Positions 827 to 57,200 of a stretch of DNA of 64,000 nt are shown here, one piece after another; the first letter of the stretch is position 1; each line of letters begins with the position of its first letter. A program made the position numbers and the translations under genes. This stretch comes from Centroscyllium fabricii. Lineage: Eukaryota. The notes below the pieces were generated by a model. The model made no database searches. It had not been told where the DNA came from and saw only the letters and a list, made by a program, of their open reading frames with translations. The stretch covers positions 2,604,001-2,668,000 of the forward strand of contig JBNRSN020000089.1 of assembly GCA_051313645.2 (NCBI GenBank), in the 5' to 3' direction.

Positions 827-839
827 GGTAAGGGGGGAG
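827..839 (+). promoter_or_regulatory. Polypurine tract
   Basis: GGTAAGGGGGGAG directly upstream of TGTAACC (840). Preceded by the 8-bp hairpin TAGTCATG-agga-CATGACTA (802..821). Confidence 0.8.
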
Positions 840-2037: not shown

Positions 2038-2043
2038 ACAAGG

Positions 2044-3064: not shown

Positions 3065-3065
3065 A

Positions 3066-8597: not shown

Positions 8598-8620
8598 TAT
8601 AGTGAGGAGTTTCCTGGGTC

Positions 8621-8689
8621 GGTGCAGACTGGATGGGCCGAATGGCCTTTATCCGCACTGTAAAGTTTCTATGATTCTATGATTCTATG
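8621..8689 (+). other. CR1 3' stem-loop and (ATTCTATG)n tail
   Basis: GGTGCAGA..GGGCC-GAAT-GGCCT..TCCGCACT inverted repeats, then three 8-bp units at 8666..8689. Confidence 0.9.
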
Positions 8690-11600
8690 AATATCCATCT
8701 GCGTACAATACATCAGACAATGTCCATCTGTGAACAATACATCAGACAATGTCCATCTGTGTACAATACATCAGACAATGTCCATCTGTGTACAGTACAT
8801 CAGACAATGTCCATCTGTGCACAGTACATCAGACAATGTCTTTCTGTGTACAGTACATCAGACAATGTCCATCTGTGTACAATATATCAGACAATGTCCA
8901 TCTGTGAACAATACATCAGACAATATCCATCTGTGAACAATACATCAGACAATATCCATCTGTGTACAATACATCAGACAATGTCCATCTGTACAATACA
9001 TCAGACAATATCCATCTGTGTACAATACATCAGACATTATCCATCTGTGTACAATACATAAGTCAATGTCCATCTGTGAACAATAAATCAGACAATATCC
9101 ATCTGTGATCAATATATCAGACAATGTCCATCTGTGTACAATACATCAGACAATATCCATCTGTGTACAATACATCAGACAATATCCATCTGTATACAGT
9201 ATATCAGACAATGACCATCTATTTACAATACATCAGACAATATCCATCTGTGTACAATACATCAGACAATGTCCATCTGTGAACAATACATCAGACAATG
9301 TCCATCTGTGTACAATACATCAGACAATGTCCATTTGTACAATACATCAGACAATGTCCATCTGTGTACAATACATCAGACATTGTCCATCTGTGTACAA
9401 TACATCAGACAATGTCCATCTGTGAACAATACATCAGATAATATCCATCTGTGAACAATACATCAGACAATGTCCATCTGTGTACAATACATCAGACAAT
9501 ATCCATCTGTGAACAATACATCAGACAATATCCATCTGTGTACAGTACATCAGAGAATGTCCATCTGTGTACAGTACATCCGACAATGTCCTTCTGTGTA
9601 CAGTATATCAGACAATGTCCATTTGTGTACAATACATCAGACTCTGTCCATCTGTGTACAATACATCAGAAAATGTCCATCTGAGAACAATACATCAGAC
9701 AATATCCATCTGTGTACAATACATCAGACAATGTCCATCTGTACAATAAATCAGACAATATCCATCTTTGTACAATACATCAGACATTATCCATCTGTGT
9801 ACAATACATCAGACCATGTCCATCTGTGAACAATGCATCAGACAATATCCATCTGTGAACAATACATCAGACAATGTCCATCTGTGTACAATACTTCAGA
9901 AAATATCCATCTGTGTACAATACGTCAGACAATATCCATGTGTGTACAGCACATCAGAAAATGACCATCTGTGTACAATACATCAGACAATATCCATCTG
10001 TGTACAATAGATCAGACAATGTCCAACTGAGAACAATACATAAGACATTATCAATCAGTGTACAATACATCAGACATTATCCATCTGTGTACAATACATC
10101 AGACAATATCCATCTGTGAATAATACATCAGAAAATGTCCATCTGTGTACAATACCTCAGACATTATCCATCTGTGAACAATACGTCAGACAATAACCAT
10201 CTGTGTACAATACATCAGACAATATCCATCTGTGTACAATACATCAGAAAATGTCCATCTGTGTACAATACATCAGACAATATCCATCTGTGTACAATAC
10301 ATCAGATATTATCCATCTGTGAACAATACATCAGACATTATCCATCTGTGTACAATATATCAGACATGGTCCATCTGTGAACAATACATCAGACATTATC
10401 CATCCTTGTACAAGATATCAGACAATATCCATCTGTGTACAATACATCAGACCATGTCCATCTGTGTACAATCCATCAGACAATATCCATCTGTGTACAA
10501 TACATCAGAGAATGTCCATCTGTGTACAATACATCAGAAAATGTTCATCTGTGAACAATACAGCAGACAATATCCATCTGTGAACAATATATCAGACAAT
10601 ATCCATCTGTGTACAATATATCAGAAAATGACCATCTGTACAATACATCAGACAATGTCCATCTGTGTACAATACATCAGACATTATCCATCTGTGTACA
10701 CTACATCAGACAATGTCCATCTGAGAAAAATAAATCAGACAATATCCATCTGTGAACAATATATCAGACAATGTCCATCTGTGTACAATACATCAGACAA
10801 TATCCATCTGTGTACAATACAGCAGACAATATCCATCTGTGTACAGTGTATCAGACAATGTCCATCTGTGAACAATACTTCAGACAATGTCCATCTGTGT
10901 ACAATACATCAGACAATGTCCATCTGTGTACAGTACATCAGACAATGTCCATCTGTGCACAGTACTTCAGACAATATCCTTCTGTATACAGTACATCAGA
11001 CAATGTCCATCTGTGTACAATACATCAGGCAATGTCCATCTGTGTAGAATACGTCAGAAAATGTCCATCTGTGGACAATAGATCAGACAATATCCATTTG
11101 TGTACAGTACATCAGACAATGTCCATCTGTGTACAATACATCAGAAAATGTCCATCTTTGAACAATACATAAGACATTATCATTTGTGTACAATACATCA
11201 GACATTATCCATCTGTGTACAATATATCAGAAAATGTACATCTGTGAACACTAAATAAGACATTATCCATCTGGGTACAATACATCAGACATTATCCATT
11301 TGTATACAATACTTCAGATATTATCCATCTGTGTACAATACATCAGACAATATCCGTCTGTGAACAATTCATCAGACAATGTCCATCTGTGTACAATACA
11401 TCAGACAATGTCCATCTGTGTACAATACATCAGACATTAACCATCTGTGTACAATACATCAGACAATGTCCATCTGTGAACAATAAATCAGACAATATCC
11501 ATCTGTGAACAATACATCAGACAATGTCCATCTGTGTACAATACATCAGACAACATCCATCTGTGTACAATACATCAGACAATATCCATCTGTGTATATT

Positions 11601-14600
11601 ATATCAGACAATGTCCATCTCTGTACAATACATCAGAAAATATCCATCTGTGTTCAATACATCAGACAATGTCCATCTGTGAACAATACATCAGAAAATG
11701 TGCATCTGTGTACAATACATCAGACAATGTCCATCTGTGTATAGTACATCAGAATATGTCCATCTGTGTACAGTACATCAGACAATGTCCTTCTCTGTAC
11801 AGTACATCAGACAATGTCCATCTGTTTACAATACATCAGACAATATCCATCTGTGTGCAATACATCAGACAATGTCCATCTGTGAACAATACATAAGACA
11901 TTATCAATCTGTGTACAATACTTCAGATATTATCCATCTGTGTAGAATACATCAGACAATATCCACCTGTGAATAATACATCAGAAAATGTCCATCTGTG
12001 TACAATACATCAGACATTATCCATCTGTGAATAATACATCAGACAATAACCATCTGTGTACAATACATCAGACAATATCCATCTGTGTACAATACATCAG
12101 AAAATGTCCATCTGTGTACAATACATCAGACAATATCCATCTGTGTACAATACATCAGACATTATCCATCTGTGAACAATACCTCATACATTATCCATCT
12201 GTGTACAATTCATCAGACATGGTCCATTTGTGAACAATACATCAGACATTATCCATCCTTGTACAACACATCAGACAATATCCATCTGTGTACAATACAT
12301 CAGACCATGTCCATCTGTGTACAATCAATCAGACAATATCCATCTGTGTACAATACATCAGAGAATGTCCATCTGTGTACAATACATCAGACAATTTCCA
12401 TCTGTGAACAATGCATCAGACAATATCCGTCTGTGAACAATATATCAGACAATATCCATCTGTGTACAATACATCAGAAAATGTCCATCTGTACAATATA
12501 TCAGACAATGTCCATCTGTGTACAATACATCAGACATTATCCATCTGTGTACACTGCATCAGACAATGTCCATCTGTGAACAATAAATCAGACAATATCC
12601 ATCTGTGAACAATACATCAGACAATGTCCATCTGTGTACAATACATCAGACAATATCCATCTGTGTACAATACATCAGAAAATATCCATCTGTGTACAGT
12701 ATATCAGACAATGTCCATCTGTGAACAATACTTCAGACAATGTCCATCTTTGTACAATACATCAGACAATGTCCATCTGTGTACAGTACATCAGACAATG
12801 TCCATCTGTGTACAGTACATCAGACAATGTCCTTCTGTATACAGTACATCAGACAATGTCCATCTGTGTACAATACATCAGACAATGTCCATCTGTGTAC
12901 AATACGTCAGAAAATGTCCATCTGTGAACAATACATCAGACAATATCCATCTGTGTACAGTACATCAGACAATGTCCATCTGTGTACAATATATCAGAAA
13001 ATGTCCATCTGTGAACAATACATAAGACATTATATATCTGTGTACAATACATCAGACATTATCAATCTGTGTACAATATATCAGAAAATGTACATCTGTT
13101 AAAACGACATAAGACATTATCCATGTGTGTAGAATACATCAGACGTTATCCATCTGTATACAATACATCAGATATTATCCATCTGTTTACAATACATCAG
13201 AAAATATCCGTCTGTGAACAATTCATCAGACAATGTCCATCTGTGTACCATACATCAGAAAATGTCCATCTGTGTACAATACATAACACAATGTCCATCT
13301 TGTGTACAATACATCAGACAATGTCCATCTGTGTACAATACATCAGACAATGTCCATCTGTGAACAATATATCAGACAATATCCATCTGTGAACAATACA
13401 TCAGACGATATCCATCTGTGTACAATACATCAGACAATGTCCATCTGTACAAAATATCAGACAATGTCCGTCTGTGTACAATACATCAGACATTAACCAT
13501 CTGTGTACAATACATCAGACAATGTCCATCTGTGAACAATAAACCAGACAATATCCATCAGTGAACAATACATCAGACAGTGTCCATCTGTGTACAATAC
13601 ATCAGACAATGTCCATCTGTACAATACATCAGACAATGTCCATCTGTGTACAATATATCAGACATTATCCATCTGTGTACACTACATCAGACAATGTCCA
13701 TCTGTGAACAATAAATCAGACAATATCCATATGTGAACAATACATCAGACAATGTCCATCTGTGTACAATACATCAGACAATATCCATCTGTGTACAATA
13801 CATCAGACAATGTCCATCTGTACAAAATATCTGACAATGTCCATCTGTGTACAATACATCAGACATTAACCATCTGTGTACAATACATCAGACAATGTCC
13901 ATCTGTGAACAATAAACCAGACAATATCCATCAGTGAACAATACATCAGACAGTGTCCATCTGTGTACAATACATCAGACAATGTCCATCTGTACAATAC
14001 GTCAGACAATGTCCATCTGTGTACAATATATCAGACATTATCCATCTGTGTACACTACATCAGACAATGTCCATCTGTGAACAATAAATCAGACAATATC
14101 CATATGTGAACAATACATCAGACAATGTCCATCTGTGTACAATACATCAGACAATATCCATCTGTGTACAATACATCAGACAATATCCATCTGTGTACAG
14201 TGTATCAGACAATGTCCATCTGTGAACAATACTTCAGACAATGTCCATCTGTTTACAATACATCAGACAATGTCCATCTGTGTACAGTACATCAGACAAT
14301 GTCCATCTGTGTACAGTACCTCAGACAATATCCTTCTGTATACAGTACATCAGACAATGCCCATCTGTGTACAATACATCAGACAATGTCCATCTGCGTA
14401 GAATACGTCAGAAAATGTCCATCTGTGAACAATACATCAGACATTATCCATCTGTGTACAATATATCAGAAAAAGTAGTTCTGTGAATACTACATAAGAC
14501 ATTATCCATCTGTGCACAATACCATCAGACATTATCCATCTGTATACAATACCATCAGATATTATCCATCTGTGTACAATACATCAGACAATATCCGTTT

Positions 14601-17193
14601 GTGAACAATTCATCAGACAATGTCCATCTGTGTACAATACATCAGACAATGTCCATCTGTGTACAATATATAACACAATGTCCATCTTGTGTACAATACA
14701 TCAGACAATGTCCATCTGTGTACAATACATCAGACAATGTCCATCTGTGAACAATATATCAGACAATATCCATCTGTGAACAATACATCAGAAGATATCC
14801 ATCTGTGTACAATACATCAGACAATGTCCATCTGTACAATACATCAGACAATGTCCATCTGTGTACAATACATCAGACATTAACCATCTGTGTACAATAC
14901 ATCAGACAATGTCCATCTGTGAACAATAAATCAGACAATATCCATTTTTGAACAATACATCAGACAATGTCCATCTGTGTACAATACATCAGACAACATC
15001 CATCTGTGTACAATACATCAGACTATCCATCTGTGTATATTATATCAGACAATGTCCATCTCTGTACAATACATCAGACAATATCCATCTGTGTACAATA
15101 CATCAGACAATGTCCATCTGTGAACAATTCATCAGAAAATGTCCATCTTTGTACAATACATCAGACATTATCCATCTGTGAATAATATATCAGACAATAA
15201 CCATCTGTTTACATTACATCAGACAATATCCATCTGTGTACAATATATCAGAAAATGTCCATCTGTGTACAATACATCAGACAATATCCATCTGTGTACA
15301 ATACATCAGACATTATCCATCTGTGAACAATACATCAGACATTATCCATCTGTGTACAATACATCAGACATGGTCCATCTGTGAACAATACATCAGACAT
15401 TATCCATCCTTGTACAACACATCAGACAATATCCATCTGTGTACAATACATCAGACCATGTCCTTCTGTGTACAATCCATCAGATAATAACCATCTGTGT
15501 ACAATACATCAGAGAATGTCCATCTGTGTACAATACATCAGACAATGTCCATCTGTGAACAATACATCAGACAATATCCATCTGTGAACAATAAATCAGA
15601 TATTATCCATCTGTGAACAATACATCAGACAATGTCCATCTGTGTACAATTCATCAGGCAATATCCATCTGTGTACAATACATCAGACAATATCCATCTG
15701 TGTACAGTATATCAGACAATGTCGAACTGCGAACAATATTTCAGACAATATCCAGCTGTGTACAATACATCAGACAAAGTCCATCTGTGTACAGTACATC
15801 AGACAATGTCCATCTGTGTACAGTACATCAGACAATGTCCTTCTGTATACAATACATCAGACAATGTCCATCTGTGTACAATACATCAGACAATGTCCAT
15901 CTGTGTACAATACGTCAGAAAATGTCCATCTGTGAACAATACCTCAGACAATCTCCATCTGTGTACAGTACATCAAACAATGTCCATCTGTGTACAATAC
16001 ATCAGAAAATGTCCATCTGTAAACAATACATATGACATTATACATCTGTGTACAATACATCAGACATTATCCATCTGTGTACAATATATCTGAAAATGTA
16101 CATCTGTGAAAACGACATAAGACATTATCCATCTGTGTACAATACATCAGACATTATCCATCTGTATACAATACATCAGATATTATCCATCTGTGTACAA
16201 TACATCAGACAATATCCGTCTGTGAACAGTTCATCAGACAATGTCCATCTGTGTACAATACCTCAGACAATGTCCATCTGTGTACAATACATAACACAAT
16301 GTCCATCTTGTGTACAATACATCAGACAATGTCCATCTGTGTACAATACATCAGACAATGTCCATCTGTGAACAATATATCAGACAATATCCATCAGTGA
16401 ACAATACATCAGACGATATCAATCTGTGTACAATACATCAGACAATGTCCATCTGTACAAAACATCAGACAATGTCCATCTGTCTACAATACATCAGACA
16501 TTAACCATCTGTGTACATTACATCAGACAATGTCCATCTGTGAACAATAAATCAGACAAAATCCATCTGTGAACAATACATCAGACAATGTCCATCTGTG
16601 TACAATACATCAGACAATGTCCATCTGTACAATACATCAGACAATGTCCATCTGTGTACAATACATCAGACATTATCCATCTGTGAACACTACATCAGAC
16701 AATGTCCATCTGTGAACAATAAATCAGACAATATCCATCTGTGAACAATACATCAGACAATGTCCATCTGTGTACAATACATCAGACAATATCCATCTGT
16801 TTACAATACATCAGACAATATCCATCTGTGTACAGTGTATCAGACAATGTCCATCTGTGAACAATACTTCAGACAATGTCCATTTGTGTACAATACATCA
16901 GACAATGTCCATCTGTGTACAGTACATCAGACAATGTCCATCTGTGTACAGTACATCAGACAATATCCTTCTTTATACAGTACATCAGACAATGCCCATC
17001 TGTGTACAAAACATCTGACAATGTCCATCTGTGTAGAATACGTCAGAAAATGTACATCTGTGAACAATACATCAGACAATATCCATCTGTGTACAGTACA
17101 TCAGACAATGTCCATCTGTGTACTATACATCAGAAAATGTCCACCTGTGAACAATACATAAGACATTATACATCTGTGTACAATACATCAAAC
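8690..17193. repeat. 29-bp satellite, segment 2
   Basis: Uninterrupted tandem monomers with periodic 27-bp variants (CATCTGTACAAT). Confidence 0.98.
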
Positions 17194-17204
17194 ATGTATT
17201 GTAC

Positions 17205-18623
17205 GGGATATATCCAAGGATTCTCTGGGAGGTGAGGAAGGAAATTGCAGAGCCACTGACCTCTATCTTTAGATCATCGCTATCCTCGGGGATAGTCCCT
17301 GAGGACTGGAGAGAGGCGAATGTGGCTCCCATATTTAAAAAGGGGAAAAGGGATGTGCCAGGGAACTACAGACTAATCAGCCTCACCTCAGTGGTTGTAA
17401 AGATGATGGAAAGGGTCCTGAGGGACAAGATCTACGAACATCTAGAAAGGGGCAAATTAACCAGAAGCAGTCAGCACGGTTTTGTTAAGGGTAAATCGTG
17501 TCTGACCAACCTGATAGAATTCTTTGAAGAGGTGACCAGGAGTGTGGACGAGGGAAAGGCGGTTGATGTCATATATATGGACTTCAGCAAGGCGTTCGAC
17601 AAGGTCCCGCACGGTCGGCTCATGAAGAAAGTAAGGAGTTGCGGGGTAAGCAGCTAAGTGGTGGGATGGATGGAGAACTGGCTGGCTCAGAGGAAGCAGA
17701 GGGTAGTGGTAGAAGGCCAATACTCGAGCTGGAGACCGGTCACCAGCGGGGTACCACAGGGGTCGGGGTTGGGGCCACTACTGTTTGTAATCTACATCAA
17801 TGACTTGGAGGAGGGGGCTGAGGGGTGGGTCAGCAAATTTGCAGATGACACAAAGATTGGGGGAGTAGTGGATGAGGAGGAAGGGAGTAGAACGATTCAG
17901 AGGGATATAGACAGGATGCAGAGCTGGGCTGAAGAATGGCAAATGGAGTTCAACACGGGGAAATGCGAGGTGATGCACTTCGGCAGGGCAAATAGGAAGA
18001 GGGAATACAGGGTCAACGGCAGGATCCTGAGTGAAGCAGAGGAGCAAAGGGATCTGGGAGTATATGTACACAGATCACTGAAGGCTGCCACCCAGGTGGA
18101 CAAAGCAGTAAAAAAGGCCTATGGTGTATTGGCCTTCATCAACAGGGGAATAGAGTTTAAGAATCGGGAGGTCATGCTGCAGTTGTACAGGTCACTGGTG
18201 AGACCACACGTGGAGTACTGTGTGCAGTTCTGGGCACCGTACTACAGGAGGGATGTGGAGGCACTGGAAAGAGTGCAGAGGAGATTCACCAGGATGCTGC
18301 CGGGAATGGGGGGAAAGTCATATGAGGAATGGTTAAGGGAACTGGGACTCTTCTCCCTGGAACGAAGAAGGAGGAGGGGGGACCTGATAGAGATGTATAA
18401 AATGATGAAGGGGATCGACAGAGTAAATGTGCAAAGACTGTTTCCCCGGGCGGGAAGAACGACAACAAGAGGACACGAGCACAAGATTCAAGGAGGAAGA
18501 TTCAGACGGGATGGCAGGGGCAAGTTCTTCACACAAAGAGTGGTCGGGGAATGGAATAGGCTACCATCTGAAATAGTGGATGCGGACAGTCTGGGTGCTT
18601 TTAAAAGGATGATAGACAGGTAA
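17205..18623 (+). pseudogene. CR1 ORF2 RT fragment with one in-frame stop
   Basis: GIYPRIL, NYRLISLTS, DFSKAFD, GVPQGS, FADD, RPHVEY. TAA at 17655..17657, with both halves in the same frame. Confidence 0.95.
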
Positions 18624-18738
18624 ATGGAAGGGAAGGAACAGTAGGGGGGACAGGAAAAATCAGAGACGGAATAAGGGTGGCACTACATTGAGGGCCCAAG
18701 TGCCTGTACAGTGCTGTATCTTCTATGTTCTATGTTCT
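17205..18738 (+). mobile_element. 5'-truncated CR1 LINE (copy 2, distinct subfamily)
   Basis: RT and C-terminal region, a different 3' UTR and a 7-bp (TTCTATG)n tail at 18721..18740. Confidence 0.95.
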
Positions 18739-21700
18739 ATTATCCATCTGTGTACAATATTTCAGAAAATGTAGTTCTGTGAACACTACATAAGACATTA
18801 TCCATCTGTGTACAGTACATCAGACATTATCCATCTGTATAAAATAGCATCAGATATTATCCATCTGTGTACAATACATCAGACAATATTAGTCTGTGAA
18901 CAATTCATCAGACAATGTCCATCTGTGTACAATACATCAGACAATGTCCATCTGTGTACAATACATAACACAATGTCCATCTTGTGTACAATACATCAGA
19001 CAATGTCCATCTGTGTACAATACATCAGACAATGTCCATATGTGAACAAAATATCAGACAATATCCATCTGTGAACAATACATCAGAAGATATCCATCTG
19101 TGTACAATACATCAGACAATGTCCATCTGTACAATACATTAGACAATATCCATCTGTGTACAATACATCAGACATTAACCATCTGTGTACAATACATCAG
19201 ACAATGTCCATCTGTGAACAATAAATCAGACAATATCCATCTGTGAACAATACATCAGACAATGTCCATCTGTGTACAATACATCAGACAACATCCATCT
19301 GTGTACAATACATCAGACAATATCCATATGTGTATATTATATCAGACAATGTCCATCTCTGTACAATACATCAGACAATATCCATCTGTGTACAATACAT
19401 CAGACAATGTCCATCTGTGAACAATACATCAGACAATGTCCATCTTTGTACAATACATCAGACAATGTCCATCTGTGTACAGTACATCTGACAATGTCCA
19501 TCTGCGTACAGTACATCAGACAATGTCCTTCTGTGTACAGTACATCAGACAATGTCCATCTGTGTACAATACATCAGACAATATCCATCTCTGTACAATA
19601 CATCAGACAATATCCATCTGTGAATAATACATCAGAAAATGTCCATCTGTGTACAATACATCAGACATTATCCATCTGTGAATAATACATCAGACAATAA
19701 CCATCTGTGTACAATACATCAGACAATATCCATCTGTGCACAATACATCAGAAAATGTCCATCTGTATACAATACATCAGACAATATCCATATGTGTACA
19801 ATACATCAGACATTATCCATCTTTGAACAATACATCAGACATTATCCATCTGTGTACAATACATCAGACATGGTCCATCTGTGAACAATACATCAGACAT
19901 TATCCATCCTTGTACAACACATCAGACAATATCCATCTGTGTACAATACATCAGACCATGTCCATCTGTGTACAATCCATCAGACAATAACCATCTGTGT
20001 ACAATACATCAGAGAATGTCCATCTGTGTACAATACATCAGACAATGTCCATCTGTGAACAATACATCAGACAATATCCATCTGTGAACAATATATCAGA
20101 CAATATCCATCTGTTTACAATACATCAGACAATGTCCATCTGTACAATACATCAGACAATGTCCATCTGTGTACAATACATCAGACATTATCCATCTGGG
20201 TACAGTGCATCAGACAATGTCCATCTGTGAACAATAAATCAGACAATATCCATCTGTGAACAATACATCAGACAATGTCCATCTGTGTACAATACATCAG
20301 ACAATATCCATCTGTGTACAATACATCAGACAATATCCATCTGTGTACAGTATATCAGACAATGTCCATCTGTGAACAATACTTCAGACAATGTCCACCT
20401 GTGTACAATACATCAGACAATGTCCATCTGTGTACAGTACATCAGACAATGTCCATCTGTATACAGTACATCAGACAATGTCCTTCTGTATACAATACAT
20501 CAGACAATGTCTGTCTGTGTACAATACGTCAGACAATGTCCATCTGTGTACAATACGTCAGAAAATGTCCATCTCTGAACAATACATCAGACAATATCCA
20601 TCTGTGTACAGTACATCAGACAATGTCCATCTGTGTACAATACATCAGAAAATTTCCATCTGTGAACAATACATAAGACATTATACATCTGTGTACAATA
20701 CATCAGACATTATCCATCTGTGTACAATATACCAGAAAATGTACATCTGTGAACACGACATAAGACATTATCCATCTGTGTGCAATACATCAGACATTAT
20801 CCATCTGTATACAATACATCAGATATTATCCATCTGTGTACAATACATCAGACAATATCCTTCTGTGAACAATTCTTCAGACAATGTCCATCTGTGTACA
20901 ATACATCAGACAATGTCCATCTGTGTACAATACATAACACAACGTCCATCTTTTGTACAATAAATCAGACAATGTCCATCTGTGTACAATACATCAGACA
21001 ATGTCCATCTGTGAACAATATATCAGACAATATCCATCTGTGAACAATACATCGGACGATATCCATCTGTGTACAATACATCAGACAATGTCCATCTGTA
21101 CAATACATCAGGCAATGTCCATCTGTGTACAATACATCAGACATTAACCATCTGTGTACAATACATCAGACAATGTCCATCTGTGAACAATAAATCAGAC
21201 AATATCCATCTGTGAACAATACACCAGACAATGTCCATCTGTGTACAATATATCAGACAATATCCATCTGTGTACAATACATCAGACAATATCCATCTGT
21301 GTACATTATATCAGACAATATCCATCTCTGTACAATACATCAGACAATATCCATCTGTGTACAATACATCAGACAATGTCCATCTGTGAACAATACATCA
21401 GACAATGTCCATCTGTGTACAATACATCAGACAATGTCCATCTGTGTACAGTACATCAGACAATGTCCATCTGTGTACAGTACATCAGACAATGCCCTTC
21501 TGTGTACAGTACATCAGACAATGTCCATCTGTGTACAATACATCAGACACTGTCGATCTGTGTACAATACATCAGAAAATGTCCATCTGTGAACAATACA
21601 TCAGACAATATCTATCTGTGTACAATACATCAGAGAATGTCCATCTGTACAATACATCAGACAATGTCCATCTGTGTACAATACATCAGACATTATCCAT

Positions 21701-35300: not shown

Positions 35301-35780
35301 GTGTACAATACATCAGACAATGTCCATCTGTGTAGAATACGTAAGAAAATATCCATCTGTGTACAATACATCAGACATTATCCATCTGTGTACAATTTAT
35401 CAGAAAATGTACATCTGTGAACACTGCATAAGACATTATCCATCTGTATACAATACATCAGACATTATCCATCTGTATACAATACATCAGATATTATCCA
35501 TCTGTGTACAATACATCAGACAATATCCATCTGTGAACAATTCATCAGACAATGTCCATCTGTGTACAATACATCAGACAATGTCCATCTGGGTACAACA
35601 TATCAGACAATATCCAACTGTGTACAATACATCAGACAATGTCCATCTGTGTACAATCCATCAGACAATATCCATCTGTGTACAATACATCAGACAATAT
35701 CCATCTGTGTACAATACATCAGAAAATGTCCATCTGTACAATACATTAGACAATGTCCATCTGTGTACAATACATCAGAC
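26319..35780. repeat. 4715-bp near-perfect tandem duplication within the satellite
   Basis: Rare variants (CCATCGGTGTACAACAGATC, CTTCTGAATTCAG, ACACAAAAGAC, ATCCGTGTCTG) and the ORF track recur at a constant offset of 4715 (4714 after a 1-bp deletion). Confidence 0.92.
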
Positions 35781-41700: not shown

Positions 41701-44700
41701 ACATTAGACAATAACCATCTGTGCGCAATACATTAGACAATATCCATCTGTGTATAATACATGAGAAAATGTCCATCTGTGTACAATACATCAGACAATA
41801 TCCATCTGTGTACAATACATCAGACATTATCCATCTGTGAACACTACATCAGACATTACCCATCTGTGTACAATACATCAGACATGGTCCATCTTTGAAC
41901 AATACACCAGACATTATCCGTCTTTGTACAACATATCAGACAATATCCATCTGTGTACAATACATCAGACAATGTCCATCTGTGTACAATCCTTCAGACA
42001 ATATCCATCTGTGTACAATAAATCAGAGAATGTCCATCTGCGTACAGTACATCAGACAATATCTATCTGTGAACAATACATCAGACAATGTCCATCTGTG
42101 TACAATACATCAGACAATATCCATCTGTGTACAATATATCAGACAATTTCCATCTGTGAACAATACATCAGACAACGTCCATCTGTGTGCAATACATCAG
42201 AAAATGTCCATCTGTGTACAATACATCAGACAATATGCATCTGTGTACAATACATCAGACAATGTCCATGTGTGTACTATACATCAGACAATGTCCATCT
42301 GTGAACAATACATCAGACAATATCCATCTATGAACAATACATCAGACAATGTCCATCTGTGTACAATACATCAGACAATATCTATCTGTGAACAATATAT
42401 CAGACAATATCCATCTGTGAAAAGGACATCAGACAATGTCCATCTGTGTTCAATACATCAGACAATATCCATCTGTGTACAATACATCAGACAATGTCCA
42501 TCTGTGAACAATACATCAGACAATGTCCATCTGTGTTCAGTACATCAGACAATGTCCTTCTTTGAACTGTACATCAGACAATATCCATCTGTGTACAATA
42601 CATCAGACACTGTCCATCTGTGTACAATATATCAGAAAATGTCCATCTGTGAACAATACATAAGAAAATATCCATCTGTGTACAGTACATCAGACAATGT
42701 CCATCTGTATACAATACATCCGAAAATGTCCAACTGTGAACAATACATATGACATTATCAATCTGTGTACAATACATCAGATATTATCCATCTGTGTACA
42801 ATACATCAGAAAATGTCCATTTGTGAACAATACATAAGACATTATCCATCATTGTACAACACAACATACAATATCCACCTGTGAACAATACATCAGACAA
42901 TATCCATCTGTGTACAATATATCAGACAAATGTCCATCTGTGTACAATATATCAGACAATATCCATCTGTGTACAATATATCAGACAATATCCATCTGTG
43001 TACAGTACATCAGACAATATCCATCTGTGAACAATACATCAGAAAATGTCCATCTGTGTATAATACATAAGATAATATCAATCTGTGTACAATACATCAG
43101 ACATTATCCATCTGTGTACAATACATCAGACAATATCCATCTGTGAACAATACATCATACAATAACCATCTGTGTACAATAAATCAGGCAATATCCATCT
43201 GTGTACAATACATCAGAAAATGTCCATCTGTGTACAATACATCAGGCAATATCCATCTGTGTACAATACATCAGACATTATCCATCTGTGAACAATACAT
43301 CAGACATTATCCATCTGCGTACAATACATCAGACATGGTTCATCTGTGAACAATACATCAGACATTATCCGTCTGTGTACAACACATCAGACAATATCCA
43401 TCTGTTTACAATACATCAGACAATACCCATCTGTGTTCAAAACATCCGACATTGTCCATCTTTGTACAATACATCAGACAATGACCATCTGTGAACTATA
43501 CATCAGAAAATGCCCATCTGTGAACAATACATCAGACAGTGTACATCTGTGTACAATACATCAGACAATGTCCATCTGTGTACAGTACATCAGACAATGT
43601 CCATATGTGTAAAGTGCATCAGACAATGTCGGTCTTTGAACAGTTTATCAGATAATGTCCATCTGTGTACAATACATAAGAAAATATCCATCTGTGTACA
43701 GTACATCAGACAATGTCCATCTGTGTACAATACATCAGAAAATGACCATCTGTGCACAATATATCAGACATTATCCATCTGTGTACATTACATCAGATAT
43801 GGTCCATCTGTGTACAGTAAAACAGAAAATATCCATCTGTGAACAATACATAAGAAAATATCCATCTGTGTACAGTACATCTGACAATTGTCATCTGTGT
43901 AAAATACATCAGAAAATGTCCAACTGTGAACAATGCATAAGATATTATCCATCTGTATACAATACATCAGACATTATCCATCTGTGTACAATACATCAGA
44001 AAATAACCATCTGTGAACAATACATAAGACATTATCCATCAGTGTACAATACATCAGATATTATCCACCTGTGAACAATACATCAGACAATATCCATCTG
44101 TGAAAATACATCAGACAATGTCCATCTGTGTACAATATATCAGACAATATCCATCTGTGAACAATACATCAGAAAATGACCATCTGTGCACAATATATCA
44201 GACATTATCCATCTGTGTACATTACATCAGATATGGTCCATCTGTGTACAATATATCAGACATTATCCATCTGTGAACAATACATCAGACATTATCCATG
44301 TGTGCACAATACATCAGACATGCTCCATCTGTGAACAATACATCAGACATTATCCATCTGTGTACTACACATCAGGCAATATACTTCTGTGTACAATAAA
44401 TCAGACAATGTCCATCTGCGTACAATCCATCAGACAATATCCATCTGTGTACAATTCATCAGAGAATGTCCATCTGTGTACAGTACATCAGACAATATCT
44501 CTCTGTGAACAGTACATCAGACAATGTCCATCTTTGTACAATACATCAGACAATATCCATCTGTGTACAATATATCAGACAATGTCCATCTGTGAACAAT
44601 ACATCAGACAATGTCCATCTGTGTACAATACATCAGACAATGTCCATCTCTGTACAATACATCGGACAATGTCCAGCTGTGTACAATACATCAGACAATG

Positions 44701-47700
44701 TCCCTCTGTGTACAATAAATCAGACAATGTCCATCTGTGTACAATAAATCCGAAAATATCCATCTGTGAACAATACTTCAGACAAAGTCCATCTATGAAC
44801 AATACATCAGACAATGTCCATCTGTGTATCATACATCAGACAATATCCATCTGTGAACAATACATCAGACAATATCCATCTGTGTACAAAACATCAGACA
44901 TTGTCCATCTGTGTACAATATATCAGACAATGTCCATCTGTGAACAAATCATCAGACATTGTCCATCTGTGTACAGTACATCAGACAATGTCCATCTGTG
45001 TACAGTACATCAGAGAATGTCCTTCTTTGAACAGTACATCAGACAATTTCCATCTGTGTACAATACATCAGACACTGTCCATCTGTGTACAATACATCAG
45101 AAAATGTCCAGCTGTGATCTATAGATAAGAAAATATCCATCTGTGTACAGTACATCAGACAATGTCCATCCGTGTACAATACATCAGAAAATGTCCATCT
45201 GTGAACAATACATATGACATTATCAATCTGTGTACAATACATCAGATATTATCCATCTGTTTACAATATATCAGAAAATGTCCATCTGTGAACAATACAT
45301 AAGACATTATCCATCAGTGTTCAGTACATCAGACATTATCCACCTGTGAACAATACATCAGACAATATCCATCTGTGTACAGTACATCAGACAAATATCC
45401 ACCTGTGTACAATACATCAGACAATATCCATCTGTGTACAATACATCAGACAATGTTCATCTGTGTACAATAAATCAGACAATATACATCTGTGAACAAT
45501 ATTTCAGAAAATGTCCATCTGTGCAAAATACATAAGACATTATCAATCTGTGTACAATACATCAGACATTATCCATCTGTGTACAATACATCAGACAATA
45601 TCCATCTGTGAATAATACATCAGAAAATGTCCATCTGTGTACAATACATTAGACATTATCCATCTGTGAACAATACATCAGACAATAACCATCTGTGTAC
45701 AATACATCAGACAATATCCATCTGTGTACAATACATCAGAAAATGTCCATCTGTGTATAATACATCAGACAATATCCATCTGTGTACAATATATCAGACA
45801 TTATCATTCTGTGAACAATACATCATACAATAACCATCTGTGTACAATAAATCAGGCAATATCCATCTGTGTACAATACATCAGAAAATGTCCACCTGTG
45901 TACAATACATCAGGCAATATCCATCTGTGTACAATACATCAGACATTATCCATCTGTGAACAATACATCAGACATTATCCATCTGCGTACAATACATCAG
46001 ACATGGTCCATCTGTGAACAATACATCAGACATTATCCGTCTGTGTACAACACATCAGAGAATATCCATCTGTTTACAATACATCAGACAATACCCATCT
46101 GTGTTCAAAACATCAGACATTGTCCATCTTTGTACAATACATCAGACAATGACCATCTGTGAACTATACATCAGAAAATGCCCATCTGTGAACAATACAT
46201 CAGACAGTGTACATCTGTGTACAATACATCAGACAATGTCCATCTGTGTACAGTACATCAGACAATGTCCATATGTGTAAAGTGCATCAGACAATGTCGG
46301 TCTTTGAACAGTTTATCAGATAATGTCCATCTGTGTACAATACATCAGACGCTGTCCATCTGTGTACAGTAAAACAGAAAATATCCATCTGTGAACAATA
46401 CAGAAGAAAATATCCATCTGTGTACATTACATCTGACAATTGTCATCTGTGTACAATACATCAGAAAATGTCCATCTGTGAACAATGCATAAGATATTAT
46501 CCATCTGTATACAATACATCAGACATTATCCATCTGTGTACAATACATCAGAAAATAACCATCTGTGAACAATACATAAGACATTATCCATCAGTGTACA
46601 ATACATCAGATATCATCCACCTGTGAACAATACATCAGACAATATCCATCTGTGAAAATACATCAGACAATGTCCATCTGTGTACAATATATCAGACAAT
46701 ATCCATCTGTGAACAATACATCAGAAAATGTCCATCTGTGCACAATACATCAGACATTATCCATCTGTGTACATTACATCAGATATGGTCCATCTGTGTA
46801 CAATATATCAGACATTATCCATCTGTGAACAATACATCAGACATTATCCCTCTGTGCACAATAGATCAGACATGGTCCATCTGTGAACAATACATCAGAC
46901 ATTATCCACCTGTGTACTACACATCAGGCAATATCCTTCTGTGTACAATAAATCAGACAATGTCCATCTGCGTACAATCCATCAGACAATATCCATCTGT
47001 GTATAATACATCAGAGAATGTCCATCTGTGTACAGTACATCAGACAATATCTCTCTGTGAACAGTACATCAGACAATGTCCATCTTTGTACAATACATCA
47101 GACAATATCCATCTGTGTACAATATATCAGACAATGTCCATCTGTGAACAATACATCAGACAATGTCCATCTGTGTACAATACATCAGACAATGTCCATC
47201 TGTGTACAATACATCAGACAATATGCATCTTTGTACAATACATCAGACAATGTCTATCTGTGTACAATACTTCATACAATTTCCATCTGTGAACAATACA
47301 TCAGACAATATCCATCTGTGTACAATACATCAGACAATGTCCATCTGTGCACAATACATCAGACAATGTCCATCTGTGAACAATACATCAGACAATGTCC
47401 GTCTGTGTACAATACATCAGACATTGTCCATCTGTGAACAATATATCAGACATTATCCATCTGTGTACAATACATCAGAAAATGTCCATCTGTGTACAAT
47501 GCATCAGACAATGTCCATCTCTGAACAATACATCAGACAATATACATCTGTGTACAAAACATCAGACATTGTCCATCTGTGTACAATATATCAGACAATG
47601 TCCATCTGTGAACAAATCATCAGACATTGTCCATCTGTGTACAGTACATCAGACAATGTCCATCTGTGTACAGTACATCAGAGAATGTCCTTCTTTGAAC

Positions 47701-50700
47701 AGTACATCAGACAATTTCCATCTGTGTACAATACATCAGACACTGTCCATCTGTGTACAATACATCAGAAAATGTCCAGCTGTGATCTATACATAAGAAA
47801 ATATCCATCTGTGTACAGTACATCAGACAATGTCCATCCGTGTACAATACATCAGAAAATGTCCATCTGTGAACAATACATATGACATTATCAATCTGTG
47901 TACAATACATCAGATATTATCCATCTGTTTACAATATATCAGAAAATGTCCATCTGTGAACAATACATAAGACATTATCCATCAGTGTTCAGTACATCAG
48001 ACATTATCCACCTTTGAACAATACATCAGACAATATCCATCTGTGTACAGTACATCAGACAAATATCCACCTGTGTACAATACATCAGACAATATCCATC
48101 TGTGTACAATACATCAGACAATGTCCATCTGTGTACAATACATCAGACAATATACATCTGTGAACAATACATCAGAAAATGTCCATCTGTGCAAAATACA
48201 TAAGACATTATCAATCTGTGTACAATACATCAGACATTATCCATCTGTGTACAATAAATCAGACAATATCCATCTGTGAATAATACATCAGAAAATGTCC
48301 ATCTGTGTACAATACATTAGACATTAACCATCTGTGAACAATACATCAGAGAATAACCATCTGTGTACAATACATCAGACAATATCCATCTGTGTACAAT
48401 ACATCAGAAAATGTCCATCTGTGTATAATACATCAGACAATATCCATCTGTGTACAAGATATCAGACATTATCCATCTGTGAACAATACATCAGACATTA
48501 TCCATCTGTGTACAACACATCAGACAATATCCATCTATGTACAATACATCAGGCAATGTCCATGTGTGTACAATCCATCAGAAAATATCCATCTGTGTAC
48601 AAAACATCAGAGAATGTCCGTCTGTGTATAGTACATCAGACAATATCTATCTGTGAACAATACATCAGACAATGTCCATCTGTGTACAGTATATCAGATA
48701 TTGTCCATCTGTGTACAATACATCAGGCAATGTCTTTCTGTGTACAGTACATCAGACAATATGCATCTGTGTAAAATACATCAGACAATGTCCATCTGTG
48801 CACAATACATCAGACAATTTCCATCTGTGAACAATAGATATCCATCTGTGTACAACACATCAGACAATATCCATCTGTGCACAATACATCAGACAATGTC
48901 CATCTGTGAACAATACATCAGGCAATGTCCATCAGTGTACAATACATCAGATATTGTCCATCTGTGTACAATATATCAGACATAATCCATCTGTGTACAA
49001 TACATCAAAAAATGGCCATATGTGTACAATGCATCAGACAATGTCCAACTGTGAACAATTCATCAGACAATATCCATCTGTTTACAATACATCAGACATT
49101 ATCCATCTGTGTACAATACATCAGACATTATCCATCTGTATACAATACATCAGACATTATCCATCTGTGTACCAAACATCAGACATTGTCCATCTGTGTA
49201 CAATACATCAGACAATGTCCATCTGTGAACAAATCATCAGACATTGTCCATTTGTGTACAGTACATCAGACAATGTCCATCTGTGTACAGTGCATCAGAC
49301 AATGTCCTTCTTTGAAGAGTACATCAGACAATTTCCATCTGTGTACAATACATCAGACACTGTCCATCTGTGTACAATACATCAGAAAATGTCCAGCTGT
49401 GATCTATACATAAGAAAATATCCATCTGTGTACAGTACATCAGACAATGTCCATCCGTGTACAATACATCAGAAAATGTCCATCTGTGAACAATACATAA
49501 GAAAATATCCATATGTGTACAGTACCTCAGACAATGTCCAGCTGTGTACAGTACATCAGAAAATGTCCATCTGTGAACAATACATATGACATTATCAATC
49601 TGTGTACAATACATCAGATATTATCCATCTGTGTACAATACATCAGAAAATGTCAATCTGTGAACATTACATAAGACAATATCCATCAGTGTACAATACA
49701 TCAGATATTATCCACCTGTGAACAGTACATCAGACAATATCCATCTGTGTACAATATATCAGACAAATTTCCATCTGTGTACAATACATCAGACAATATC
49801 CATGTGTGTACAATACATCAGACAATGTCCATCTCTGTACAATACATCAGACAATATCGATCTGTGAACAATACATCAGAAAATGTCCATCTGTGCACAA
49901 TACATAAGACATTATCAATCTTTGTACAATACATCAGATATTATCCATCTGTGTACAATGCATCAGACAATATCCATCTGTGAATAATACATCAGAAAAT
50001 GTCCATCTGTGTACAATACATCAGACATTATCTATTTGTGAACAGTACATCAGAAAATATCCATCTGTGAACAATACATCAAACATTATCCATCTGTGTA
50101 CAATACATCAGAAAATGTCCATCTGTGTACAATACATCAGACAATATCCATCTGTGTACAATACATCAGACATTATCCATTTGTGAAAAATACATCAGAC
50201 ATTATCCAGCTGTGTACAACACATCAGACAATATCCATCTGTGTACAATACATCAGACAATGTCCATTTGTGTACAATCCAACAGACAATATCCATCTAT
50301 GTACAATACATCAGAGAAGGTCCATCTTTGTACAGTACATCAGAAAATATTTATCTGTGAACAATACATCAGAAAATATCCATCTGTGTTCAATATATCA
50401 GACAATGTCCATCTGTGAACAATACATCAGACAATGTCCATCTGTGTTCAATACATCAGACAATGTCCATCTGTGTACAATACATCAGACAATATGCATC
50501 TGTGTACAATACATCAGACAATGTCCATCTGTGTGCAATACATCAGACAATTTCCATCTGTGAACAATACATCAGACAATATCCATCTGTGTACAATATA
50601 TCAGATAATGTCCATCTGTGCACAATACATCAGTCAATGTCTATCTATGAACAATACAACAGACAATGTCCATCTTTGTACAATACATCAGATATTGTCC

Positions 50701-53274
50701 ATCTGTGTACAATATATCAGACATTATCCATCTGTGTACAATACATCAGAAAATACCCATCTGTGTACAACGCATCAGACAATGTCCATTTATGAACAAT
50801 ACATCAGATATTGTCCATCTGTGTACAATATATCAGACATAATCCATCTGTGTACAATACATCAAAAAATGTCCATATGTGTACAATGCATCAGACAATG
50901 TCCATCTGTGAACAATACATCAGACAATATCCATCTGTGTACAATACATCAGTCATTATCCATCTGTGTACAATTCATCAGACATTATCCATCTGTATAC
51001 AATACATCAGACATTATCCATCTGTGTAACAAACATCAGACATTGTCCATCTGTGTACAATACATCAGACAATGTCCATCTGTGAACAAATCATCAGACA
51101 TTGTCCATCTGTGTACAGTACATCAGACAATGTCCATCTGTGTACAGTACATCAGACAATGTCCTTCTTTGAACAGTATATCAGACAATTTCCATCTGTG
51201 TACAATACATCAGACACTGTCCATCTGTGTACAATGCATCAGAAAATGTCCAGCTGTGATCTATACATAAGTAAATATCCATCTGTGTACAGTACATCAG
51301 ACAATGTCCATCCGTGTACAATACATCAGAAAATGTCCATCTGTGAACAATACATATGACATTATCCATCTGTGTACAATTCATCAGACAATATCCAGCT
51401 CTGAACAATACGTCAGAAAATGTCCATCTGTGTTCAATATATCAGACATTATCCATCTGTGAACAATAAATCAGACAATATCCATCTGTGTACAATACAT
51501 CAGACACTGTCCATCTGTGTACAATACATCAGAAAATGTCCATCTGTGAACAATACATAAGAAAATATCCATATGTGTAGAGTACATCGGACAATGTCCA
51601 TCTGTTTACAGTACAACAGAAAATGTCCATCTGTGAACAATACATATGACATTATCAATCTGTGTACAATACATCAGATATTATCCATCTGTGTACAATA
51701 CATCAGAAAATGTCAATCTGTGAACAATACATAAGACATTATCCATCAGTGTACAATACATCAGATATTATCCACCTGTGAACAATACATCAGACAATAT
51801 CCATCTGTGTACAATACATCAGACAAATTTCCATTTGTGTACAATACATCAGACAATATCCATGTGTGTACAATACATCAGACAATGTCCATCTGTGTAC
51901 AATACATCAGACAATATCCATCTGTGAACAATACATCAGAAAATGTCCATCTGTGCACAATACATAAGACATTATCAATCTGTGTACAATACATCAGACA
52001 TTATCCATCTGTGTACAATGCATCAGACAATATCCATCTGTGAATAATACATCAGAAAATGTCCACCTGTGTACAATACATCAGACATTATCTATCTGTG
52101 AACAATACATCAGAAAATAACCATCTCTGAACAATACATCAGACATTATCCATCTGTGTACAATACATCAGAAAATGTCCATCTGTGTACAATACATCAG
52201 ACAATATCCATCTGTGTACAATACATCAGACATTATCCATCTGTGAACAATACATCAGACATTTCCAGCTGTGTACAACACATCAGACAATATCCATCTC
52301 TGTACAATACATCAGACAATGTCCATTTTTATACAATACAACAGACAATATCCATCTATGTACAATACATCAGATAATGTCCATCTTTGGACAGTACATC
52401 AGACAATATTTATCTGTGAACATTACATCAGAAAATATCCATCTGTGTTCAATATATCAGACAATGTCCATCTTTGAACAATACATCAGACAATGTCCAT
52501 CTGTGTTCAATACATCAGACAATGTCCATCTGTGTACAATACATCAGACAATATGCATCTGTGTACAATACATCAGACAATGTCCATCTGTGTGCAATAC
52601 ATCAGACAATTTCCATCTGTGAACAATACATCAGACAATATCCATCTGTGTACAATATATCAGACAATGTCCATCTGTGCACAATACATCAGTCAATGTC
52701 CATCTGTGAACAATACAACAGACAATGTCCATCTGTGTACAATACATCAGATATTGTCCATCTGTGTTCAATATATCAGACATTATCCATCTGTGTACAA
52801 TACATCAGAAAATGTCCATCTGTGTACAACGCATCAGACAATGTCCATTTGTGAACAATACATCAGAGAATATCCATTTGTGTACAAAACATCAGACATT
52901 GTCCATCTGTGTACAATACATCAGACAATGTCCATCTGTGAACAATACATCAGACAATGTCCATCTGGGAACAATACATCAGACAATGTCCATCTGTGTA
53001 CAATACATCAGACAATGTCCATCTGTGTACAGTACATCAGACAATGTCCATCTGTGTACAGTACATCAGACAATATTTTTCTTTGAACAGTACATCAGAC
53101 AATGTCCATCTGTGTACAATATATCAGACACTGTCCATCTGTGCACAATACATCAGAAAATGTCCATCTGTGAACAATACATAAGAAAATATCCATCTGT
53201 GTACAGTACATCAGACAATGTCGATCTGTGTACAATACATCAGAAAATGTCCATCTGAGAACAATACATAAGAC

Positions 53275-53416
53275 ATGGTTCCTGCCTCCACCACCCTCAC
53301 AGGCAGGGAGTTCCAGTCTTCCACCACCCTCTGGGTAAAGAAATTTCTCCTTACCTCCCCCCTAAACCTCCCCCCCCTGATCTTGAATCTATGTCCCCTA
53401 GTGCTTGACTCTCCCA
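53275..53416 (-). repeat. 142-bp inverted copy of 53956..54097
   Basis: Reverse complement of TGGGAGAGTCAAG...GGCAGGAACCAT. Both translate to GESSTRGHRFK...VVEAGT. Confidence 0.95.
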
Positions 53417-53420
53417 TATA

Positions 53421-54182
53421 ATGGTTAATTGGGCAGAAAAATGGCAAATGGAGTTCAACCCAGAGAAATGCGAGGTCATTCAATTCGGTAGACCAAATGG
53501 GGTAAGGGAATATACCATGAACAACAAAACGTTAAATAGGACCGAGGAGCAGAGGGACCTGGGGGTACAGGTGCACAGCTCCCTGAAGGTTGCTGGACAC
53601 GTTAACAAGGTGGTTAAGAAGGCATACGGAATTCTCGCCTTTATTAACCAGGGCATAGTATACAAAAGTAGGGAGGTAATGTTAAACCTGTATAACACAC
53701 TGGTGAGACCTCAGCTGGAGTACTGTGTGCAGTTCTGGTCACCGCACTACAGGAAGGATGTGGCTGCCCTGGAGAGGGTGCAGAGAAGGTTTACCAGGAT
53801 GATACCTGGTCTGGCGGACCTATGCTACGAGGAAAGGCTGGACAGGCTGGGGTTGTTTGCCTTGGAGAAAAGAAGGTGGAGGGGTGACATGATTGAGGTG
53901 TACAAGATCATGAGGGGACACGATAGGGTAGACAAAGGGGCATTGTTTCCCCTGGTGGGAGAGTCAAGCACTAGGGGACATAGATTCAAGATCAGGGGGG
54001 GGAGGTTTAGGGGGGAGGTAAGGAGAAATTTCTTTACCCAGAGGGTGGTGGAAGACTGGAACTCCCTGCCTGTGAGGGTGGTGGAGGCAGGAACCATCAC
54101 AACATTTAAAAAATACTTGGACCAGCACATGAAGGACCATAACATACAGGGTTATGGGCCAGGTGCGGGCAACTGGGGTTAG
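53421..54182 (+). pseudogene. CR1 ORF2 C-terminal fragment (open, 253 aa, no catalytic RT core)
   Basis: WAEKWQMEFNPEKC, RDLGV, RPQLEYC, RGHRFK, FTQRVV. Open at both positions where copy 1 has TGA. Confidence 0.93.
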
Positions 54183-54275
54183 AACAGTGAGGAGTTTTTC
54201 TGGGCCGGTGCGGACTGGATGGGCCGAATGGCCCTTATCCGCACTGTAAAATTTCTATGATTCTATGATTCTATG

Positions 54276-57200
54276 ATTATCCATCTGTATACAATACATC
54301 AGACATTATCAATCTGTGTACAATACATCAGAAAATGTCCATCTGTGAACAATACATAAGACATTATCCATCAGTGTACAATACATCAGATATTATCTAC
54401 CTTTGAACAATACATCAGTCAACATCCATCTGTGTACAATACATCAGAAAAATGTCCATCTGTGTACAATACATCAGACAATATCCATCTGCGTAAAATA
54501 CATCAGACAATGTCCATCTGTGTACAATACATCAGACAATATCCATCTGTGAACAATACATCAGAAACTGTCCGTCAGTGTACAATACATAAGACATTAT
54601 CAATCTGTGTACAATACATCAGATTTTATGCATCTGTGTACAATACATCAGACAATATCCATCTCTGAACAATACATCAGAAAATGTCCATCTGTGAACA
54701 ATACATAAGACATTATCCATCAGTGTACAATACATATGATATTATCCACCTGTGAACAATACATCAGACAACATCCATCTGTGTACAATACATCAGACAA
54801 ATGTTCATCTGTGTACAATACATCAGACAATATCCATCTGCGTAAAATACATCAGACAATTTCCATCTGTGTACAATACATCAGACAATATCCATCTGTG
54901 AACAATACATCAGAAATTGTCCGTCTGTGCACAATACATAAGATATTATCAATCTGTGTACAATACATCAGATATTATCCATCTGTGTACAATACATCAG
55001 ACATTATCCATCTGTGAATAATACATCAGAAAATGTCCATCTGTGTACAATGCATCAGACATTATTCATCTGTGTACAATACATCAGACAATATCCATCT
55101 GTGTACAATACATCAGAAAATATCCAGCTACGTACAATACATCAGAAAATATCCATCTGTGTACAATAAATCAGACATTATCCAACTGTGAACAATACAT
55201 GAGACATTATCCATCTGTTTACAATACATCAGACATGGTCCATCTGTGAACAATACATCAGACATTATCCATCTATGTACAGCACATCAGACAATATCCA
55301 TCTGTGTACAATACATCAGACAATTTCCATCTGTGTACAAAACATCAGACATTGTCCATCTTTGTACAATAAATCAGAAAATGTCCATCTGTGAACAATA
55401 TATCAGAAAATGTCCATCTGTGAACAATACATCAGACAATGTACATCTGTGTACAATACATCAGACAATGTCCATCTGTGTACAGTACATCAGACAATGT
55501 CCATCTGTGTACAGTACATCAGACAATATCCTTTTTTGAACAGTACATCAGACAATGTCCATCTGTGTACAATACATCAGACAATGTCCATCTGTGCACA
55601 ATACATCAGAAAATGTCCATCTGTGAACAATACATAAGAAAATATCCATCTGTGTACAGTACATCAGACAATGTCCATCTGCGTACAATACATCAGAAAA
55701 TGTCCATCTGTGAACAATACATAAGACATTATCCATCTGTATACAATACATCAGACATTATCCATCTGTGTACAATACATCAGAAAATGTCCATCTGTGA
55801 ACAATACATAAGACATTATCCATCAGTGTACAATACATCAGATATTATCCACCTGTGAACAATACATCAGCCAATATACATCTGTGTACAATACATCAGA
55901 CAAATGTCCATCTGTGAACAATATATCAGAGAATATCCATCTGCGTAAAATACATCAGACAATGTCCATCTTTGTACAATACATCAGACAATATCCATCT
56001 GTGAACAATACATCAGTAACTGTCAGTCTGTGCACAATACATAAGACATTATCAATCTGTGTACAATACATCAGATATTATGCTTCTGTGTACAATACAT
56101 CAGACAATATCCATCTGTGAACAATACATCAGAAATTGTCCATCTGTGAACAATACATAAGACATTATCCATCAGTGTACAATACATCAGATATTATCCA
56201 CCTGTGAACAATACATCAGACAATATCCATCTGTGTACAATACATCAGACAAATGTCCATCTGTGTACAATACATCAGACAATATCCATCTGCGTAAAAT
56301 ACATCAGACAATGTCCATCTGTGTACAACACATCAGACAATATCAATCTGTGAACAATACATCAGAAATTGTCCGTCTGTGCACAATACATAAGATATTA
56401 TCAATCTGTGTACAATACATCAGACATTATCCATCTGTGTACAATACATCAGACAATATCCATCTGTGAATAATACATCAGAAAATGTCCATCTGTGTAC
56501 AATGCATCAGACATTATCCATCTGTGAACAATACATCAGATATTATCCATCTGTGAACAATACATCAGACATTATCCATCTGTGTACAATACATCAGACA
56601 TTGTCCATCTGTGAACAATACATCAGACAATATCCATCTGTGTACAATGCATCAGATATTATCCAACTGTGAACAATACATCAGACATTATCCAACTGTG
56701 TACAATAAATCAGACATGGTCCATCTGTGAACAATACATCAGACATTATCCATCAGTGTACAACACATCAGACAATATCCATCTGTGTACAATACATCAG
56801 ACAATATCCATTTGTGTACAAAACATCAGACATTGTCCATCTTTGTACAATACATCAGACAATGCCCATCTGTGAACAATACATCAGAAAATGTCCATCT
56901 GTGAACAAAATATCAGACAATGTACATCTGTGTACAATACATCAGACAATGTCCATCTGTGTACAGTACATCAGACAATGTCCATCTGTGTACAGTGCAT
57001 CAGACAATGTCCTTCTTTGAACAGTACATCAGACAATGTCCATCTCTGTACAATACATCAGACACTGTCCATCTGTGTACAATACATCAGAAAATATCCA
57101 TCTGTGAACAATACATAAGAAAATATCCATCTGTGTAGAGTACATCAGACAATGTCCATCTGCGTACAATACATTAGAAAATGTCCATCTGTGAACAATG

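Follow-up and report, generated by a model that had tools for sequence, protein, structure and literature searches.

The DNA analyzed here is a window of 64,000 nucleotides from Centroscyllium fabricii (2,604,001-2,668,000 of contig JBNRSN020000089.1, in the 7.2-Gb assembly GCA_051313645.2). It carries a portion of a 29-bp satellite array interrupted by three copies of CR1, a long interspersed nuclear element (LINE) (Table 1). In most vertebrates CR1 is the dominant retrotransposon, and its insertion is usually regarded as rather unselective. In this window the three copies end on the + strand at the same base, right after the AGAC of a satellite monomer: tail^AATATCC at 8690 and tail^ATTATCC at 18739 and 54276 (the caret marks the junction, and positions are counted from it as -1 and +1). 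A sequence-only reading had seen in this a candidate satellite-targeted LINE system, and its description of the window is accurate. The junctions lie where it had placed them, copies 2 and 3 have 5' flanks ending in AAAC-AT and AGAC-AT, and copy 2 comes from a separate family, with 69% identity to copy 1 (92.6% for copy 3).

Table 1. Satellite, CR1 copies and target sites in the window
Feature	Position	Strand	Remarks
29-bp satellite, 5' flank of CR1 copy 1	2648..3064	+	~14 monomers; stops 6 bp before the nick phase (6-bp target deletion)
CR1 copy 1	3065..8689	+	family A (8-bp tail), near full length
241-bp tandem repeats, 5' part of copy 1	3084..4383	+	
ORF1 (esterase) of copy 1	4684..5685	+	open
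ORF2 (APE endonuclease and RT) of copy 1	5670..8597	+	interrupted by frameshifts and stops
Tail of copy 1	8667..8689	+	
Target site 1	8690..8694	+	+1..+5 from the presumed nick; AATAT monomer
29-bp satellite array	8690..64000	+	portion of an 886-kb array
CR1 copy 2	17196..18738	+	family B (7-bp tail), 5'-truncated; 2-bp target duplication (AT)
Target site 2	18739..18743	+	ATTAT monomer
CR1 copy 3	53277..54275	+	family A, 5'-truncated; 2-bp target duplication
Target site 3	54276..54280	+	ATTAT monomer

Both families have the same organization. Open reading frame 1 (ORF1) encodes an SGNH/GDSL esterase domain (PF13472, E=1.5e-15 in family A and 2.4e-12 in family B), and ORF2 encodes an APE endonuclease (PF03372) followed by a reverse transcriptase (RT, PF00078). 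Their 3' tails are microsatellites of 8-bp (A) and 7-bp (B) units without poly-A; the tail unit of the chicken CR1 is ATTCTRTG (PMC2817409; papers are cited by such numbers for the parts consulted).

One base and one strand across the array

We analyzed the contig from 2.10 to 3.158 Mb. The satellite occupies 2,152,903-3,039,047 (886 kb, ~28,300 monomers), and all of the 1,273 genome matches of a 42-mer satellite probe fall inside this array. The interruptions of at least 45 bp were 37: 11 copies of family A, nine of family B, ten of a short interspersed nuclear element (SINE), one CR1 of a third family, three non-coding long terminal repeat (LTR) elements, two Gypsy elements and one captured 3.1-kb piece. 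Collapsing the copies by common 5' ends and flanks reduced the 30 copies of family A, family B and the SINE to 14 independent events (A 7, B 6, SINE 1); four of the ten SINE copies were scored in this way and the other six were read from the array survey.

In all 14 events (30/30 copies) the junction is AGAC^A[AT]T, always on the same strand, so that the lock of phase and strand first proposed for the window extends to the whole array. A search for the reverse-orientation junction pattern gave no match. Under a uniform null of 58 sites the probability of this result is ~1e-23, or 2e-17 if a slack of +/-1 base is allowed, and the events span two LINE families about 68-69% alike plus one SINE. 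At the other end of the elements, 11 of the 13 LINE events start 0-7 bp beyond this base, with the local variant of the monomer repeated there, while the remaining two have 6-bp deletions. These duplications of 0-7 bp match the short-duplication signature of CR1/L2 elements, which peaks at 3-5 bp (PMC4245944). In the family B junctions TCTATGT^AATGT the boundary base is free of microhomology, indicating that the boundary is set by the target.

The sequence-only reading had also restricted the insertions to TATCC-type monomers. This applies to the three window copies only. Over the array the events fall in ATTAT (5), AATAT (4), AATGT (4) and AATGA (1) monomers, and the four in AATGT, i.e. TGTCC, monomers reject such a rule. 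What is left is a mild preference, with 9/14 events in the TAT types versus 37% of the monomers (P=0.035). An endonuclease or DNA-shape preference, as had been suggested, is still the best reading of the lock, but the motif given for it, GGATA(A/T)T^GTCT, is too narrow, since TGTCC monomers are hit too.

A small number of founder insertions, multiplied by amplification of the array and by conversion and then trimmed by 5' deletion, might in principle give the same picture. Amplification does occur, as seen in the reduction of 30 copies to 14 events, and flank identity alone is no proof of independence, because the flanks of an old duplicate (2402434) have decayed to background (0.89). Besides, the flanks of the pair 2153246/2607065 are 0.92 identical, above the 95th percentile of random pairs. 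However, the site is common to three unrelated element types, young pairs 99.5% alike differ in their 5' ends and have flanks at background, and a short duplication at the site in 11 of 13 cases is not expected of random deletion. The spread of founders could cut the 14 events to about 11-12, not to 1-3. As an origin of the lock we find it very improbable, in agreement with the earlier view that array amplification cannot explain it.

The families are dispersed through the genome

R1, SART1, TRAS1 and Tx1 also insert at a fixed base and orientation in a tandem repeat, and they are confined to their target. A LINE system of this type, with families adapted to the satellite, would readily account for the lock in 14/14 events. 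Two further results point in that direction: the array contains 10 independent events with exact 3' ends versus 3.6 expected (A 6 vs 1.5, B 4 vs 2.1; ~2.8-fold, P=0.004), and one of its family B copies is full-length and intact. Nevertheless, >99.9% of the CR1 copies lie elsewhere. Genome-wide, we found 12,372 exact 3'-end patterns of family A and 16,807 of family B, evenly distributed on both strands, and only 15 of the 29,179 (A 10, B 5) were inside the array. The copies in the array belong to the same subfamilies as the dispersed ones, with identities of up to 99-100%, and Pfam detects in ORF2 only the APE and RT domains. Considering also that the same families use a hotter single-base site in a SINE (see below), the proposal of a satellite-targeted system is largely refuted. 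The satellite is likely a landing pad by chance of its sequence and not a dedicated target.

The intact family B copy (contig 2485845-2490932) has ORF1 (339 aa) and ORF2 (983 aa) open, and many of 80 dispersed long CR1 loci carry ORFs of at least 800 aa. From these open frames, families A and B both look active.

Hotspots inside SINEs

Among the first 100 listed matches, two A and four B junctions were followed by one common downstream sequence, the antisense strand of a SINE. A phase-free search with a 30-bp window of this SINE gave 2,255 matched strings. Among the matches listed, which had three types of tail (families A, B and a third one), 71 of 77 junctions were at ACAC^ATATCC and six at a site 18 bp upstream (hand count). 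The other half of the SINE was seen on the 5' side at 10 of the 12 displayed loci (of 30 fetched), at distances of 81-1,225 bp, which marks these junctions as separate insertions. There are 245,036 copies of the SINE anchor, giving a per-site occupancy of ~0.7% versus ~0.05% per satellite monomer, or ~0.4% versus 0.035% when only the listing rates of A and B are used. This ratio, roughly 10x, is a rough one because the ages of the SINE copies and of the array differ, but it weighs against satellite targeting. The insertions at the hottest SINE base are estimated at 1,700.

On the other strand of this SINE stretch there were 331 strings, most of them at a single site where the microhomology is longer. 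A third SINE window gave 262, and its main site, G^AATGT, shows the junction forms of the satellite. Its 90 listed junctions were distributed as G^AATGT 60, G^AAACC 19, G^ACACG 9 and other 2 (hand count). The sense strand of the SINE (e.g. contig 2698924-2699244) has four G-runs, G-quadruplex-like, that end four bases before the hottest CR1 nick and lie on the nicked strand; the satellite has no motif of this kind.

Target preference at dispersed sites

Comparison with homologous copies of repeats allowed the empty site to be reconstructed at 67 of 215 junctions; 18 rows from SINE hotspots, tandem repeats and low-complexity sequence were dropped and 49 kept. Microhomology of 1-5 nt was present at 42 of the 49 (~13 expected), and an A was available at +1 also at 42/49. 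Position -1 was C in 44%, G in 30% and T in 25%, a composition biased against A because the leftmost A was taken as the position of the nick. In 116 unselected junctions, the bases at +2 to +5 were A/T-rich. The logo that results, (C>G)^A-W-rich, contains ~2 bits and is limited to -1..+5. It predicts shares of 0.39, 0.28 and 0.19 for the ATTAT, AATAT and AATGT monomers (observed 5, 4 and 4 of 14) and ranks the SINE hotspot first, with 59% predicted and 92% seen.

The frequency of microhomology raises the question of whether pairing between tail and target (A, AT, ATT), which is known for CR1 (PMC6007223), could set the site alone after random nicks. In the satellite, the boundary of three family B events is free of microhomology, and the AT/ATT present at several further phases and on the opposite strand went unused. 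In the SINE, the strand offering 4-5 nt had ~7-fold fewer matches than the one offering 2 nt (136 vs 927 reverse-strand matches, not normalised by the abundance of the second anchor). We consider microhomology alone a most unlikely determinant of the site.

Other signals at these sites were considered and rejected. A GC-skew (R-loop) bias was weak, -0.10 at -15..-3 and ~0 elsewhere (90/107 junctions). Hairpins at the site had folds of -2.5 to -5.9 kcal/mol with no common geometry. A direct search for duplications and an expectation-maximization logo, in which 17 of 107 junctions were dropped as tandem, nested or poorly bounded, were scarcely above the mismatched-pair control and were confounded by the tail; they were not used.

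A probable preference for a small set of steps

The explanation that we favour, with a probability of about 0.65, is that families A and B are ordinary CR1 LINEs, active and dispersed, with an endonuclease that likely nicks only at a few favoured steps, the satellite being a phased hotspot because it repeats one of these steps ~28,000 times. ORF2 would nick the bottom strand at 5'-(A/T-rich)T^G, that is, top-strand C^A followed by A/T-rich bases. The microsatellite tail of the RNA would then pair with the freed 3' end over 0-5 bases, priming reverse transcription, and a second nick would be made 0-7 bp downstream. Among similar-looking sites, the choice would depend on the conformation of a stretch of DNA longer than 5-7 bases. 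Target-primed reverse transcription in which the tail pairs with the target has been described (PMC6007223), as has site selection through DNA conformation by the L1 endonuclease (PMC8565326).

Several results weigh against this explanation. The logo gives the used site of the satellite 9-25% of the weight, or 8% with a fourth rank; taken over all estimates the share is 8-36%, at which 14/14 has a probability below 1e-6. The C^AWW rivals at +17 (86% of monomers) and on the reverse strand (52%) took 0/14 events; under a simple C^AWW rule with three competing sites, P(14/14) is 2e-7. The 2.8-fold enrichment of the array counts against the explanation as well. No distal or split motif was detected at +6..+36 (116 junctions) or at -30..-1 (86), where only scattered p values of 0.01-0.03 appeared, and a downstream CCA at +6..+8, common to the satellite and SINE sites, was discarded as too weak (1,175 vs 965 in the reverse-complement control, 1.2-fold). 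The logo itself was built on 49-116 sites with an ambiguous nick assignment. As it underpredicts both the satellite (8-25%) and the SINE sites, both repeats show a sharper choice than the logo allows, and there must be an extra factor, likely DNA shape or protein occupancy.

Protein occupancy is the basis of the main rival, in which a generic C^AWW preference acts on satellite chromatin whose bound protein or phased structure masks the other sites and one strand and leaves AGAC^A[AT]T open. It would explain why one of three near-equal sites in the logo is used, and the most variable monomer columns, +2 (19%) and +4 (45%), are right at the site. Besides, the Gypsy element and the captured 3.1-kb piece interrupt the array within a few bases of it. 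On the other hand, an equally sharp single-base choice is made in the dispersed SINE, with unrelated chromatin, and other phases are open to other elements: the third CR1 family inserted at +17, where the monomer has its other AC^AAT, and the LTR element at +13 and +17. Masking by chromatin is in our opinion unlikely.

A broader proposal can be made, though only tentatively. Vertebrate CR1 endonucleases could be quasi-site-specific, recognizing a DNA conformation over an extended stretch that escapes a base logo and is conserved between families ~68% alike. One base of a satellite monomer or SINE would then absorb nearly all local insertions, at 100-1,000x the genome average. If true, CR1 would stand naturally midway between dispersed LINEs and targeting of the R1/Tx1 type, and a single genome would supply thousands of scored events. 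The target rule of CR1 is now directly testable, as there are many open ORF2 copies and both hot and cold sites have been defined; among solved structures we found no CR1 endonuclease. Parallel CR1 insertions inside repeats are possible, which calls for caution with retroposon phylogenetic markers, and phased LINEs in a satellite are not by themselves proof of centromere or satellite targeting.

Relation to known systems

By their ORF1, ORF2, tail, short duplications and microhomology, families A and B qualify at the sequence level as canonical CR1 LINEs. Canonical vertebrate CR1 elements have an esterase ORF1, an APE-RT ORF2 and a poly-A-less microsatellite tail, with short duplications, 3' microhomology and a tRNA-type SINE that carries the tail of the LINE, as here (PMC13343379, PMC4245944, PMC6007223, PMC3747384). 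The likeness to the HER1/HE1-type LINE-SINE pair of sharks and rays comes from a table of names (PMC3747384), not from an alignment. Of the features of site-specific LINEs, the fixed base and strand are present, but confinement to one repeat and a long common target consensus are absent.

A close parallel is human L1/Alu, also dispersed and with a short motif read through DNA conformation (PMC8565326), and with single-nucleotide oriented hotspots inside other repeats, some of them off the canonical motif (PMC2836564). L1 belongs to another clade and has a relaxed motif, TTTTT/AA, versus the C^A-W-rich one found here; its duplications are of ~15 bp versus 0-7 bp, and priming by a microsatellite tail is particular to CR1 in this comparison. 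In the split insertion signature of the RTE clade (Nishiyama and Ohshima 2018), the first target base correlates with the microsatellite tail (PMC6007223), as in our data, although no distal T-stretch or split signal was detected here (86-116 sites). Oriented single-base hotspots in repeats are thus already known from human Alu and others (PMC2836564), and the new part is the unexpectedly sharp choice by CR1. The literature searched gave no report of single-base, strand-biased CR1 hotspots or of satellite-phased CR1; Ichiyanagi and Okada 2008 and Ichiyanagi et al. 2007, outside that scope, may report CR1 target preferences. The consulted parts of PMC13343379 and PMC2817409 give no target motif.

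Other features of the array

Copy 3 of the window begins with a stretch (53277-53416) that matches its own internal 53956-54093 in inverted orientation (138/138). This 5' inversion is a fold-back duplication, unlike the usual twin-priming inversion. The third-family CR1 (contig 2291226-2293696) is 65% identical to A and B, with a different tail and an open frame of 792 aa.

The Gypsy-type LTR retrotransposon, 4.4 kb long and with protease, RT, RNase H and integrase, inserted one base off the CR1 site with an ATAT duplication; its two copies (contig 2835929-2840374 and 2848783-2853228) were duplicated along with the array. The captured piece (contig 2669079-2672219) is 3.1 kb of old repeat-rich genomic DNA with CAGAC microhomology at its right end, adjoining the CR1 site, and looks like break repair. 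A 37-bp satellite adjoins the 29-bp array (contig 3039054-3158000 and beyond, at least 119 kb); no CR1 tails were found within these 119 kb, a stretch too short to judge.

The left end of the window (1-2647; contig 2602884-2606646) belongs to a non-coding LTR-type element, which we take to be ERV-like (of endogenous retrovirus type), also found at contig 2887180 and 2889883. It is made of 1.7-kb units with ends TGTAAC...GTTACA and contains tandem repeats of 57 and 211 bp; it has duplications of 4 bp and, behind the first unit, a stretch resembling a primer-binding site; its copies in the array represent two insertion events. Finally, a ~10-kb higher-order repeat at contig 2696504-2745699 is marked by ten SINE and four short CR1 copies, and should be of use for dating the expansion of the array.

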